From: an uncultured Spirochaetota bacterium
GTDB lineage: Bacteria > Spirochaetota > Spirochaetia > SZUA-6 > Fen-1364
Direction of reading: 5' to 3'
DNA: 64,000 nucleotides
NCBI GenBank assembly: GCA_963820525.1
Contig: CAWGAA010000001.1
Span: forward strand, 736,001 to 800,000
A model generated the notes under the pieces. It saw only the letters and a list, made by a program, of their open reading frames with translations, searched no databases and was not told where the DNA came from. A program made the translations under genes and the position numbers. This document shows, piece after piece, positions 48,637 to 53,073 of this stretch. How positions within the stretch are numbered: position 1 is the stretch's first letter; every line of letters begins with the position of its first letter.

Positions 48637-49722
48637 ATGATACGCAATCGCTTTTCTAAGATTCTCACTCAAATGTTTAGCATAATATTTGCTTTTTTTA
48701 TTCTCGCTAATACTGTTTTTGCAGATGATTCACATATTTATATGGGTTCCATTATTAACAGAAACAAGATATTCTTATCAATTGATAATGGGTCAACGAC
48801 TATTCGTATTCCAGAAGCTTATAATATTATTTCTCCATCTTCATATAATCCATTATCAAGACTTATCTTATTGAGCAAGAGCAATTCTTTGTATGTATTT
48901 AATTGCGACTCATCTAAAATAAATCCCATTTTGACCAATTTTAAACCAAATAATAGCGAAATTGAAATTATTCAATCTGTTAGCGATGATAATTCCTTTC
49001 TAATTTCTACATATTCTATCAGTGAAGATTCTATTTATTCAGAAAAACACTATAATGATTATTACTTCCTTAATGCAATTTACAAACGCTATAGTAAAGT
49101 ACCAGAATTCCTAAATGCGATATTGAAAGATAATACAAATCAAATAGTCTATGATTCAGCTAATTCTTCAATTATAAAATGGCTTGCTGGTGAAGGTCGC
49201 TATATGCCCTTGCCAATAGAAATCATTGATCTAAAAACTGGTCTCTCTAGTGAGTTAATACGCGAAACCGATTTTCCAGTAGATCCACTGTTTAATATTA
49301 ATTATTATAATAATTTTCTTATTGGCACTCCTAAGAACATTTCTATAACTAATCAAGTATTTGTATACTCAATTAGAAGCAGCTTACTTAAGAAATATAC
49401 ATTATCTAACATTGAACATTTCGACTATGCATATTCTTCCATTTATGATGATAGTAGTGATTCTTTACTAATTGGTCAAAAAGATAGCATATTAAGGCTA
49501 AAACTACAGACTGCAAAAATAAGTGATGTATTAATTCATTCTGATAATAAAGTCTATCTAAATAAGATGTACTTAATATCTAATAGACTTGTTTATCAAA
49601 GTAATAATAAGATTGTCATCTTAGATCCAAACAACTTATCAATTATAAATACATATACTCTTATGGGAATCGACAAATCAAAACCGAATACCGAATTTGG
49701 GATTTTCAATTTGTCTGACTAA
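48637..49722 (+). CDS. Hypothetical exported protein (possible beta-propeller)
   Basis: AAAGGAG RBS; signal peptide ending VFA; AT-rich. Confidence 0.75.
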   Translation: MIRNRFSKILTQMFSIIFAFFILANTVFADDSHIYMGSIINRNKIFLSIDNGSTTIRIPEAYNIISPSSYNPLSRLILLSKSNSLYVFNCDSSKINPILTNFKPNNSEIEIIQSVSDDNSFLISTYSISEDSIYSEKHYNDYYFLNAIYKRYSKVPEFLNAILKDNTNQIVYDSANSSIIKWLAGEGRYMPLPIEIIDLKTGLSSELIRETDFPVDPLFNINYYNNFLIGTPKNISITNQVFVYSIRSSLLKKYTLSNIEHFDYAYSSIYDDSSDSLLIGQKDSILRLKLQTAKISDVLIHSDNKVYLNKMYLISNRLVYQSNNKIVILDPNNLSIINTYTLMGIDKSKPNTEFGIFNLSD

Positions 49723-49787
49723 TTTTTTTGAGTTCTTGCATGATTCGGATGCAGGATAACATGCTGTTGGAGATTGTTTTAGAAATG

Positions 49788-51194
49788 TCAAGCAGTTTTT
49801 TTCGTGACCGCTTGTTTTTTCCTCCCCCCTTTTGTTCGCGTACCTTGAGCCTTGCAGTTCTTGACCTTCTTAGTACTCTTCGATTTATTTAATCTTGGGG
49901 ATGAGGGCGATATGTTGCTTTTGCGACTTTGATCGCCGCGGGTAACACCGCTTGCCATATCGCCTTCTCCCTCTTTCAGAATCTTTTGTCCCAAATCGTT
50001 TGCCTTCGATTCATTGAGGGCAGAAAGCTCACGAAAGATCACGCGTACAAGCGCTCGTGCCACCCTCTTAGTCGCCTCCAGGGGCCGCATTCCCGCCTTC
50101 ACAAGGTTCCTGTAATAACCCGCCAGGTGAGAGCCGGGATCGTAGAAGACCACGTTGCGCGCCGCCGTCATAAAAGCGTCCTTCAATCGATGGTTAAACA
50201 ACCGCGTAGGGATCATCATGGTGGTGTTGCCCGTTGTATGTTCCCTCATTCCCAAGCCACTGTAGCAGGCCAGGCTGTCCTCACGGGCGAATCGGCGAAT
50301 GTCGATGATCTCGGCAATCATCTTCGCCGCGGTGAGGGTCGCAATACCGCGGCGGCTTTTCAGGCACTGCACTGCGAGGTTCCCTTGAGTAAGGCTATCC
50401 AGCATCCCAAGAAGCTCGCTCTGCTCCCCTTTGAACCGCTCGATCTGTTGGGCGCTGTTTCTGATCACCAACGCGATCCCCGCGGAGATCGAGGGAAAGC
50501 TTTCGGCTGCCTCTCGCAGCTCCGCGATGAGCTCGCCCCGTCCCTTGTAGTTGCCTCCCCCCATCGCCTCCCGCATATCCGTCTGCGAAAGGCGTTTCCA
50601 TTCTCCAATGTCCGGCTTGGAGATAAAAAGAGTGAGAATCCCCTGGTTTTTGAGCACTTTTCCCCGCTGCTCGTTCTCCCTATTCTTGCCCCCGAGCAGC
50701 AGATACAGATCCGGGCAGGCGTACCGCAAAAGCTTCCACAGCCGGTTCATTTCCCCCGTCAGTTGATCGCTGAGGCTCTCCCAGCGGCGAGTAAGAGCTT
50801 GCAGCTCCATATCCGCGATCCACACACGCCGATACTGATCAAGCTTGCCCTGCGCCTCCAAGGCTAGAGCATACCTCGCAACCGATTCCGCGTCCCGCTC
50901 GTTATTCTTGTTCTGGCCCAGCACCGCCTTCCTGAACTTTTCCGTGTCCGCGGGTTTGAAGGAATGAAAGATCACTCCCCCTTCCCGCAGCGCCTTCTCG
51001 ATAGGTCGGCTCTGCCCATGAGTGCCTTCGATCCCCACGATCGGCTTCCCTTCGGCTTTCACCCAGCGAAGGAACTCACTCAAGCCATTCTGGCTCACCG
51101 AAAATCGTTTCGTAATCACCTGAGCTTTGCTGTCCTTGACCAACGCGCAGACAAATCCTGTGGAGTCCGGGTCTATTCCGATCGAACTGTTCAC
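49788..51194 (-). CDS. IS110-family recombinase/transposase
   Basis: GIDPD, VGIEGT, KNNERDA (RuvC-like); LKSRRGIATLTAAKMIAEIIDIRRF, CYSGL, ARALVRVIF (Tnp domain). Confidence 0.93.
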   Translation of the reverse strand: MNSSIGIDPDSTGFVCALVKDSKAQVITKRFSVSQNGLSEFLRWVKAEGKPIVGIEGTHGQSRPIEKALREGGVIFHSFKPADTEKFRKAVLGQNKNNERDAESVARYALALEAQGKLDQYRRVWIADMELQALTRRWESLSDQLTGEMNRLWKLLRYACPDLYLLLGGKNRENEQRGKVLKNQGILTLFISKPDIGEWKRLSQTDMREAMGGGNYKGRGELIAELREAAESFPSISAGIALVIRNSAQQIERFKGEQSELLGMLDSLTQGNLAVQCLKSRRGIATLTAAKMIAEIIDIRRFAREDSLACYSGLGMREHTTGNTTMMIPTRLFNHRLKDAFMTAARNVVFYDPGSHLAGYYRNLVKAGMRPLEATKRVARALVRVIFRELSALNESKANDLGQKILKEGEGDMASGVTRGDQSRKSNISPSSPRLNKSKSTKKVKNCKAQGTRTKGGRKKQAVTKKTA

Positions 51195-51227
51195 ACACTC
51201 ACCCCCAAATCCTTAAGGCGTATATAC

Positions 51228-51495
51228 CCGTTCCGTCATCCTTGTAGGGAGCCACTGCCTCGCGTGGAGGGCAGGCATTTGTTTTACATGACAAGAACGG
51301 CCCTTGTGGCGCTGGCAATCTCCAACAAGTCGTCTCCAGGACGGCAGCTGACAGCCCGAGCAACAACGCCACAAGGTGTTCTCTATTCATACCGATCCAT
51401 GAGCGTCAATCCCCTTTTCCCACATATCCACAATCTGTTAGTCTCCCTCCCCCAGACCCCCTCCCTCGCTTACCGCCGTTGTCATTCTCTCCTCA
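51228..51495 (-). ncRNA. Putative IS110 bridge RNA (target-binding loop 51302-51376, donor-binding loop 51228-51300)
   Basis: Two stem-closed internal loops whose guide segments match the attC target and the element junction; 5' end inferred from the junction promoter. Confidence 0.85.
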
Positions 51496-52065
51496 TGCAT
51501 ATATCCTACAAGTTGACGCCTTAGGTTGGTTTTACAACTGCTACCCTACTCCTTAGAACTATTTGTGCCGTGCTTTGGGCGGCGGCGCAACTCAACAGCG
51601 TCGTTATATCCACGCTAAAGAAATTCTTTGGGAGAATGTTTTGCTTGTTCTGTTTTGAATTACTCAAAGCAAATAAAGAATTCTCTTTCACAATCTTGCG
51701 GGTTTTACCTTGTTGAATTCTTTTGATACCTTTGCGCGGGCCATCTACGTTCCTGTTGGAACAGCTCGCGCACGTTAGCTAAAGGGGCATTAATTACCTT
51801 TTTTAGCATCACTTTCTTTCGCTTTGCCTGAATTCTATCATCAATCAACTAACCTGATATTTTATCCATATCGTGAAGCTTGTCCTTCGGCCCGCGCATA
51901 TTGGTCTGTTTCCGCGTAGATATAACATGCTGTTGGAGTTGACCGCCTAGGCGACGCTCCCCTACTTTCAACTACGCGCGGTAATGCATTTTGTGCTTGG
52001 ATGATTCGGGGCGGCAACTCAACAGCGTCGTTATATCCATCTAGATTTATATTGATTAGCGAAGA

Positions 52066-53073
52066 AAGGGGTATTTACTTGACTCTACCAATCTTTGTCT
52101 GGCCGACGCCAGCACGAACAAGCTCTCTGAAAGGCGCTGGGTCAACGGCCACTGCCTGTTGCAGAAGCCTATAGAATAGTTTTCCACGATGGGTTGAGGT
52201 GCGCCGATTGAACCGGAAGGTGAACTCGTCGAGGTAGAACTCAAGATGATCCCGAGATACCCCACCCTGATGAGTTCCCAACAACCATCTCTTCAGCAAG
52301 GATGCCACCCTGTGAACTCTGGGCATCAAAGTAGACGCGGACTTTCCGCTTCCGCTGATCAGTCGTAATTTATGCCGGTAGCCATGCTCATTGAGCCACT
52401 CATAACCTTCCCAGCCATCGGTGATCACAATGGATCCTGGCTCCACAGCATCTTGCACAAAAGGGCGGAGACTGTTCGCAGAAGCATCATCGATGCGACT
52501 CAATCTGATCCGACCGATGCCATTTCCATCCACTTGGGCTGCAATTACTACAAGGGCCTTGTTTCCGAGGTGCCGGCGGCCTCCTTCAGGCTCCACCCCA
52601 CCAACATAGGTTTCATCCACTTCGATCTTGCCCGTAAGGCGATCCCTGCCGGGCCGCACCATAGCTCGCCTGAGTTTCTGTAGACAGGCCCAAGCCGTTT
52701 TATAGCTTCCAAGCCCCAGCAAACGCTGGAGTCCCAAGGCACTGATCCCTTGTTTCTGATTCGTAACCCACCATATAGCTCTGAACCATGTTCGAAGGGG
52801 AAGATGGCTACGATGGAAGATTGTACCCGCAAGTGCGGAAGCCTGGTAACCGCAATTCGAGCACTTCAGAAGCCCTCGTCCCAACGACCAATATGCTACG
52901 CTGCGGCACCGCGGGCAGTGAAAGCCTTTAGGCCAGCGCAATTGGAGCAGGTAGGTACGGCAGTCCTCTTCATTCGAGAATCGTTCCTCGAACTCGCTGA
53001 GATTCTGAGGGAAATCCTCCATACCTCCAATATCCTAGCCCGGAAAGCTGGTAGAGTCAAGTAAATACCCCTT
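52066..53073 (-). mobile_element. IS1595-family element
   Basis: 25-bp IRs AAGGGGTATTTACTTGACTCTACCA; 8-bp duplication AGCGAAGA at 52058-65 and 53074-81; inside a family B cassette. Confidence 0.94.
52075..53022 (-). CDS. IS1595-family transposase
   Basis: RWPKGFHCPRC zinc finger, EVDETYVGG, ITDGW, YLDEFTFRFN. Confidence 0.93.
   Translation of the reverse strand: MEDFPQNLSEFEERFSNEEDCRTYLLQLRWPKGFHCPRCRSVAYWSLGRGLLKCSNCGYQASALAGTIFHRSHLPLRTWFRAIWWVTNQKQGISALGLQRLLGLGSYKTAWACLQKLRRAMVRPGRDRLTGKIEVDETYVGGVEPEGGRRHLGNKALVVIAAQVDGNGIGRIRLSRIDDASANSLRPFVQDAVEPGSIVITDGWEGYEWLNEHGYRHKLRLISGSGKSASTLMPRVHRVASLLKRWLLGTHQGGVSRDHLEFYLDEFTFRFNRRTSTHRGKLFYRLLQQAVAVDPAPFRELVRAGVGQTKIGRVK

Follow-up and report, generated by a model that had tools for sequence, protein, structure and literature searches.

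An IS110-type insertion sequence whose predicted bridge RNA is probably programmed for one arm of integron attC sites

The 64,000-nucleotide stretch of DNA analysed here, referred to as the window, lies on a contig (CAWGAA010000001.1, positions 736,001 to 800,000, forward strand) from the genome of an uncultured Spirochaetota bacterium (GenBank assembly GCA_963820525.1). It covers part of a long array of integron attC sites, one of which is interrupted by an insertion sequence, termed IS-A, that consists of a recombinase gene and an upstream non-coding end. IS-A is very probably an IS110-type (IS621-like) RNA-guided element with a bridge RNA that is programmed for one arm of attC. Its ends and flanks can be read directly from the sequence, and they are those given in the first-pass annotation of this DNA, which had described an element on the minus strand splitting an attC L'' box at a 2-bp CT core. 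On the minus strand, the left junction consists of GGCGTCAA-CT followed by the left end of IS-A, TGTAGGATAT (TGTAGG from position 51510), while at the right junction the end CTAAAACAAT runs up to position 49773 and is followed by CT-CCAACAGCATGTTAT. Since CT is present at both junctions, IS-A without either copy spans 49773–51510 (1,738 bp), and deleting this segment together with one CT recreates a normal attC, with the 13-mer that is most frequent in the array. The annotation had also proposed an element that lacks inverted repeats and has its non-coding region upstream. This agrees with the layout, in which 316 nt precede the gene, only 15 nt separate the stop codon from the right end, and no terminal or sub-terminal inverted repeat was found (a repeat search gave 23 inverted pairs, none joining both ends).

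The recombinase contains the Pfam domains PF01548 (E=3.8e-18) and PF02371 (E=5.7e-13), corresponding to the DEDD RuvC-like and Tnp domains. It barely passes the cut-off of NCBIfam model NF033542, 'IS110 family RNA-guided transposase' (140.6 bits, cut-off 140), and its best match in the PDB is the IS621 transposase (8wt6, E=5.1e-5). The assignment to the IS110 type made from the first reading is therefore upheld. Relative to the catalytic set of IS621 (D11, E60, D102, D105 and S241), D8, E56 and D101 are kept; the other two positions are discussed below.

The non-coding end had been described as containing two stem-closed loops, and all loop, stem and guide coordinates agree with the sequence base by base (Table 1). 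In the target-binding loop (loop 1), CCUUGUGGCG (51376–51367) pairs with CGCCACAAGG (51311–51302) and, further in, CGUC (51343–40) pairs with GACG (51334–31). In the donor-binding loop (loop 2), CCGUUC (51300–295) pairs with GAACGG (51233–28) and GUCAU (51292–88) with AUGAC (51239–35). Folding of 51225–51385 on the minus strand (161 nt) reproduces exactly these two loops at −63.3 kcal/mol (z −2.37, 2 of 200 shuffles being as stable). The guide words sit in the predicted loops in IS621 order, as had been claimed along with the IS621-type guide logic and CT core: a guide that pairs with the bottom strand comes first and is followed by one that pairs with the top strand, and both take in the core, with the exception of the left donor guide (LDG). 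The left target guide (LTG), right target guide (RTG) and right donor guide (RDG) include the core, and the RTG and RDG are exact complements of the core plus the right target and of the core plus the right donor, respectively. The LDG is located where it had been placed, but it matches 7–8 nt without the core and would pair over only ∼7 nt (UAAAACA). The four bases that follow the RTG form a putative handshake guide, and a repeat search found 51327–51316 (UGUUGGAGAUUG, the RTG plus these four bases) to be complementary over all 12 nt to the right junction, CAAT-CT-CCAACA at 49765–76.

That these matches between leader and flanks are due to chance is scarcely credible. The LTG is short and, allowing one mismatch, is present in 4,483 of 20,000 dinucleotide shuffles of the 316-nt end; the RTG appears in 296, the 8-mer LDG in 52 and the RDG in 41. 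None of the 20,000 shuffles, however, holds three or more of the four words, and guides and flanks covary across the family (see below), on which grounds chance matching was rejected. A search of the region 49000–52500 against 4,227 Rfam families (E ≤1) gave a single match, to a vertebrate long non-coding RNA model with 20.2 bits against a gathering score of 55. This match is taken as chance, and thus no Rfam family covers the predicted bridge RNA.

Table 1. Features of IS-A and of the attC site that it interrupts (window positions).
Feature	Position	Strand	Remarks and basis
IS-A, IS110-type insertion sequence	49773..51510	-	1,738 bp without either CT; ends read from sequence, length by script
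Recombinase gene, 468 aa, GTG start	49788..51194	-	Open reading frame and family matches
Upstream non-coding end encoding predicted bridge RNA	51195..51510	-	316 nt; conserved in 64 aligned relatives
Target-binding loop	51302..51376	-	Closing stem CCUUGUGGCG(UUG)/(CAG)CGCCACAAGG; fold and compensatory changes
Left target guide (LTG) GUCAG-CU	51346..51352	-	Same sense as GTCAA-CT; G opposite bottom-strand T
Right target guide (RTG) UGUUGG-AG (UGUUGGAG)	51320..51327	-	Exact complement of CT-CCAACA
Target-loop handshake guide AUUG	51316..51319	-	Complements last four bases of right end, CAAT
Donor-binding loop	51228..51300	-	CCGUUC/GAACGG and GUCAU/AUGAC stems, inner hairpin; fold
Left donor guide (LDG) UAAAACA(A), 8-mer UAAAACAA	51279..51286	-	Same sense as right end CTAAAACAAT
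Right donor guide (RDG) CCUACA-AG (CCUACAAG)	51241..51248	-	Exact complement of CT-TGTAGG (core and left end)
Left CT core copy, closing left target half GGCGTCAA-CT	51511..51512	-	Sequence; same CT flanks both ends in relatives
Right CT core copy, then right target half CCAACAGC	49771..49772	-	Sequence
Interrupted attC	49754..51609	+	R'' GGATAAC 49754–60, L'' arm split by IS-A, L', R' GTTATAT 51603–09
TTGACA, -35 half of putative junction promoter	49786..49791	-	Sequence reading; complete only in circle junction
TAGGAT, -10 half of putative junction promoter	51503..51508	-	Sequence reading only

The target of IS-A has the features of an integron attC. It is an imperfect inverted repeat that contains R and L boxes and has additional bases on one of its arms, and it belongs to a co-oriented array next to an integron integrase. 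The integrase gene is located at 682092–683030 of the contig (minus strand; TIGR02249, 410.7 bits, cut-off 265). The first attC lies 0.8 kb from it, and 169 co-oriented L'' arms extend over ∼140 kb (683787–823468 of the contig). In the window, the 13-mer GTCARCTCCAACA has 77 matches with up to two mismatches, compared with 2.05 expected; 75 of the matches are on the minus strand, and 24 show no mismatch. The dozens of matching sites noted at first are borne out by 24 exact GTCAACTCCAACA sites in the window, all on the minus strand, and by 47 intact GTCAACTCCAACA sites in the array besides that of IS-A. The minus-strand arm next to GTTAT carries two extra bases, reading GG[T/A]CAA-CT-[C]CAACAG compared with GG-CAA-CT-CAACAG in the other arm (6 of 6 printed alignments, from 74 sites). 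The extra bases concur with the position of the integrase and with the bias of open reading frames of at least 80 aa (23 on the plus and 10 on the minus strand, in cassettes with a median length of 427 bp); the plus strand therefore corresponds to the top strand of attC, and L'' is the arm that carries the extra bases. On the arm that bears IS-A, the extra T lies under the left guide and the extra C (G on the plus strand) under the right guide. Since one extra base lies on each side of CT, each under a different guide, the L' arm is mismatched, with one base different under the left guide and the sequence out of register under the right guide, and both the arm and the orientation are fixed. 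Matches to GTCA[AG]CTCCAACA in the array are all on the minus strand (48 of 48). The arm specificity that the first-pass annotation had attributed to a single extra G under the RTG thus holds, but the extra bases are two rather than one.

Several features of the array were seen in passing. Its attC sites group into a few sequence sub-families (47, 42, 25, 22, 11 and so on), and many cassettes of ∼400 bp are repeated with almost the same ends, which points to duplication of cassettes on a large scale. A second integrase gene is found at 1.95 Mb, where a small array lies close by. The cassette with the interrupted attC (window 48637–49722, plus strand) codes for a protein of 361 aa; its N-terminus is signal-like, and it matches no Pfam family at E ≤0.001. 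The next cassette interval (52075–53022, minus strand) encodes a 315-aa IS1595-family transposase (PF12762, 3.9e-30; PF12760, 1.5e-14), and hence there is another, unrelated mobile element less than 600 bp from IS-A.

Relatives of the recombinase number 425 at E ≤1e-30 among 7,998 scored candidates, almost all of them metagenome proteins, and six of 401 Spirochaetota genomes, the host genome included, have a match at E ≤1e-40. Some 90 loci (numbered with the prefix L) were gathered, comprising three from reference genomes, the Spirochaetota matches and 79 metagenome loci from the best 80 of 180. The leader anchor was matched in 75 loci (that of L008 being false), which have 62 distinct target loops. 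An alignment of 64 distinct leaders yields 33 consensus pairs, 18 of them with compensatory changes. In loop 1 they cover the outer stem and in loop 2 both the outer and the inner stem, and the guides fall in unpaired, variable columns. Compensatory changes are found in the stem columns 39–56/114–129 of loop 1 (for example, pair 48–120 is CG in 28 and AU in 24) as well as in the pairs 132–144/205–215 and 158–166/180–190 of loop 2. Nearly all members have an LDG of the form UAAAACA, two variable bases and UGCC, and stopping short of the core is therefore a family trait. The donor guides follow the element ends, in that L012 has the LDG AAAACUAU and the end AAAACTAT, and relatives with the left end TGTAAG carry UUACAAG in the RDG. 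The right end is known for 57 rows; of these, 52 combine an AUUG handshake with CAAT, three from one lineage combine AAUG with CATT, and two are mismatched.

Guide/target covariation among homologous elements, the check that had been named in the first-pass annotation, is positive for both target halves. Agreement was scored over seven non-core positions in those rows with a recognisable end. For the left half, the cognate mean is 4.37 compared with 2.05 for non-cognate pairs (43 distinct pairs), and for the right half it is 5.05 compared with 2.22 (39 distinct pairs), in each case with 0 of 10,000 permutations reaching the cognate mean, although the rows are related and these results are not exact probabilities. 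Individual guides follow single-base differences between sites. A GACAG flank occurs with a GACAGCU guide (L021), GACTG with GACUGCU (L023 and L062), CT-GCAACGA with UCGUUGCAG (L072) and CT-CCAGC with GCUGGAG (L028, L033–35, L059 and L060). Targets other than attC also fit the guides of their own elements, namely at L008 and at three copies in the genome of a relative (G216; L014, L016 and L017), which have one shared target half at different loci. The fits of L008, L012 and the G216 copies were judged by eye, outside the permutation test.

Guides of the attC type are found in 25 of the 69 proteins with a leader. The flanks of these relatives read GGCGG(T/A)C(A/T)(A/G)-CT-(C/G)CA(A/G)CG...TGTTA. 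At 13 loci the flank was long enough to reconstruct the empty site, and each of these sites has, ∼60–80 nt upstream, a partner arm from which the same two bases, one on either side of CT, are absent. The guides track the local attC variant on the left (GTCAA, GACAG, GACTG, GTCTA and GACAA) and on the right (CCAAC, GCAAC and CCAGC). Of the eight attC-type guides with G beside the core, three (IS-A, L057 and L065) sit at A, while none of the 11 with A sits at G, which fits a G-T wobble with the bottom strand. A quick tree of the recombinases with SH-aLRT support only, in which two rows with wrongly picked reading frames (L004 and L010, branch length 10) are disregarded, places the attC-type guides in two well-supported clades plus L088. 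The first clade has 16 rows, 15 of the attC type and L019, which has another loop 1 in spite of 86% protein identity; the second has 12 rows, seven of the attC type and five without a leader in the contig. The well-supported (starred) branches force at least three changes of guide type, which may represent one gain and two losses. The tree supports the view that attC targeting is a trait of whole clades and not of IS-A alone.

It might be argued that the recombinase or a host factor selects the target mainly by the attC hairpin or its extrahelical bases, and that RNA pairing serves as a secondary check. All attC-type relatives with enough flank do occupy the same position in a site that forms a hairpin, the left guide is short, and a target stem-loop is reported as a second specificity layer for ISPpu10 (10.64898/2026.03.19.712850). 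However, the guides follow single-base attC variants, and close relatives with other guides (L019 and L027) are found in sites unlike attC. This is what specificity set by the RNA predicts, and we consider selection mainly by the hairpin improbable, while a structural gate may act in addition.

Three groups of relatives are of separate interest. The host genome has a paralogue, termed IS-B (830207–831646 of the contig, minus strand; L002 and L013), which lies ∼7 kb beyond the last attC and encodes a 425-aa protein that is 61% identical to that of IS-A and contains PF01548 and PF02371. Its loop 1 keeps the RTG and handshake of IS-A (UUGUUGGAGAUUGCC) with a left guide that ends in AU, not CU; its donor loop is quite different, the family right end TAAAACAATCT is missing, and a fragment of an IS3-type integrase core lies downstream. 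The G216 genome contains four identical copies of a 46%-identical relative, of which L010 has a different sequence at the leader position. The sites of L014, L016 and L017 resemble TTCCCGC-CT-TCCTGT and match the guides CCCGCCU and ACAGGAAG. In a third group (L019, L030, L031, L042, L089 and L090; one member is 86% identical to the IS-A protein), the left guide is GCGGGCU but the flank is GGCGGGC-CT, one base longer than the guide, while there is a good fit between CT-ACAACG and the right guide (CGUUGUAG or a similar sequence).

From the anatomy, the matches, the conserved structure and the covariation of guides and flanks, all of which are observed, we infer the RNA itself, a circular intermediate, a promoter and current activity, as follows. 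IS-A would excise as a circle. Its joined ends read TTGACA, 17 nt (13 of the right end, the CT and two of the left end) and TAGGAT, a layout that is the same in relatives, and this is probably a promoter rebuilt at the circle junction, as in IS621. It would drive the 5' leader, that is, the bridge RNA, together with the recombinase gene. The donor loop would hold the circle junction, with UAAAACA paired to the right end's bottom strand, and CCUACAAG to the top strand of CT and the left end. The target loop would hold double-stranded attC, with GUCAGCU pairing to the bottom strand of GTCAA-CT through one G-T wobble and UGUUGGAG to the top strand of CT-CCAACA. Strands would be exchanged at CT, after which the AUUG beside the RTG would pair with the incoming donor strand in the handshake. 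The crossover would thus lie between the two extrahelical L'' bases, one under each guide, and the near-palindromic L' arm would be left unmatched.

A tentative extension, possible but on balance doubtful, is that these elements form a distinct subfamily of bridge recombinases in which Thr-Gly replaces Ser-Gly in the nucleophile loop and Asn replaces the third DEDD residue. They would be specialised on attC by crossing over between its extrahelical bases, their guides would diversify together with the attC families of different hosts, and the wobble G would serve two sub-families; the hairpin might act as a second gate, and the element could travel with cassettes moved by the integrase. If so, the asymmetry that the integrase recognises on the folded strand would be the one that the guide RNA reads on double-stranded DNA. 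If the alignment with IS621 holds, the recombinases of the subfamily would use a Thr nucleophile and a D-E-N-D site.

A number of observations weigh against an active element that is programmed for attC. The whole 316-nt leader folds no better than its shuffles (z +1.03). The two bases after the RDG (GA) cannot pair with the AA of the target, and a donor-loop handshake is therefore not supported for IS-A; among relatives read by eye this handshake is mixed. The left target guide is short (5 nt plus the core) and contains a wobble. Its G had been said to pair with either of the attC variants AGTTGAC and AGCTGAC, and the wobble fits the data from relatives, but the host genome has no site that matches GUCAG together with CCAACA perfectly (GTCAGCTCCAACA; all 52 matching sites have GTCAA). 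Of 52 right halves in the family, 10 match at six or fewer of nine positions, and L011, L012 and L088 are half-matches. The recombinase has Asn98, invariant in the subfamily, where IS621 has D102, and Thr321-Gly322 aligns with S241-G242 of IS621, although this alignment is weak (4.7 bits). The 5.05-Mb genome (four contigs) has one full copy of IS-A despite the 47 identical empty sites in the same array. Finally, RNA ends, the circle junction and the empty allele were not seen in the contigs of four of 21 public runs (X1, X2, X19 and X20), although contigs cannot show absence; one contig from X1, which may be the source sample, spans the right junction. Contigs from two RNA libraries of one study that are 90–95% like IS-A extend over the gene and over portions of the leader (51313–51512 and 51338–51523), but these concern relatives and are no proof of transcription.

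The single copy, the circle junction and empty allele missing from those contigs, and the Thr and Asn at the Ser and Asp positions of IS621 could also mean that the mechanism is as proposed but this copy of IS-A is now immobile, a fixed relic whose guides record a site that was once entered. We regard this as unlikely. The open reading frame is intact and keeps all residues that are invariant among 27 relatives (63–90% identity, with IS-A itself in the alignment), and the guides, both ends and both halves of the junction promoter are intact as well. Thr321 is present in 27 of 27 sequences, where it is preceded by Ser (14), Thr (11) or Ala (2). Because Thr321 and Asn98 are shared by relatives with multiple copies, such as that of G216 with four, they look like a trait of the subfamily and not like damage.

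These results indicate that RNA-guided targeting of attC is not limited to the IS1111 branch and is also carried out by an IS110-type lineage with an upstream two-loop bridge RNA, the guides of which are readable directly from DNA. The family constitutes a natural reprogramming series, in that the guides of close relatives differ at one to a few positions, each matching the attC variant in which the element resides. It thereby offers ready-made guide/target pairs for studying the tolerance of mismatches and wobbles, the length of the handshake and the role of target structure. In large chromosomal integrons, such elements have at their disposal dozens of landing sites that are almost identical and harmless. 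Splitting of an attC arm by an element should block the site for the integrase and fuse two cassettes, and elements of this kind may therefore shape cassette arrays.

IS-A resembles IS621 in having a DEDD/RuvC-like and Tnp recombinase, an upstream leader with the target loop before the donor loop, a CT core, a handshake guide after the RTG, a (predicted) circle-junction promoter and no inverted repeats. In the IS621 bridge RNA the first guide pairs with the bottom strand and the second with the top strand, both with the core (Durrant 2024, PMC11208160; Siddiquee 2024, PMC11187229). Bases just 3' of its right target guide pair with the incoming donor strand after exchange, its left target guide contains a G-T pair, and its promoter is rebuilt at the circle junction (Hiraizumi 2024, PMC11208158). 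Unlike IS621, IS-A encodes a distant (E=5.1e-5 to 8wt6) and longer protein (468 compared with 326–328 aa) with Asn and Thr at the D102 and S241 positions, the second of which is weakly aligned. Its LDG stops short of the core, its RDG is one unbroken 8-mer, its target-loop handshake is 4 nt, and its target is a structured integron attC arm.

Elements of the IS1111-attC group (ISKpn4, ISPst6 and ISPa25; PMC11187229) are likewise RNA-guided DEDD transposases inserted at a fixed position at one end of attC, and the shared target is what would recommend viewing IS-A as an element of this kind that uses a seekRNA. This is very unlikely. In that group the guide RNA is encoded downstream of the transposase gene, the strand matches come in the opposite order and the elements have sub-terminal inverted repeats (PMC11187229), whereas IS-A has 15 nt after its stop codon in place of a downstream non-coding region, lacks such repeats and has its guides in IS110 order. 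Plasmids commonly carry IS1111-attC elements, but in a tblastn search of 72,556 plasmid records none of the 15 matches listed exceeded 25% identity, all 200 matching records were below 60% and none came from genera with IS1111-attC elements. This search lends only indirect support to the earlier suggestion that attC targeting arose here independently of IS1111. The RNA-guided attC targeting described in print is of the IS1111 type, and among the titles and abstracts listed in searches on IS110, bridge RNA, attC and integrons, none describes an IS110-type bridge RNA aimed at attC. In Durrant 2024 (PMC11208160), attC occurs only in the reference list, and the words 'integron' and 'cassette' are absent from a 2026 preprint on large IS110 loci.

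Two further elements are comparable in other respects. ISPpu10 (10.64898/2026.03.19.712850) is an IS110 element whose natural target is, as for IS-A, a repeated hairpin-forming sequence, but this target is a Pseudomonas intergenic repeat, where the stem-loop was shown to be an extra gate. ISEc21 (PMC11187229) is an IS110-type element with an upstream guide RNA in which the bottom-strand match precedes the top-strand match, as in IS-A; its target is different. Hence, IS-A is a new member of the IS110 bridge-RNA family, from environmental clades specialised on integron attC.

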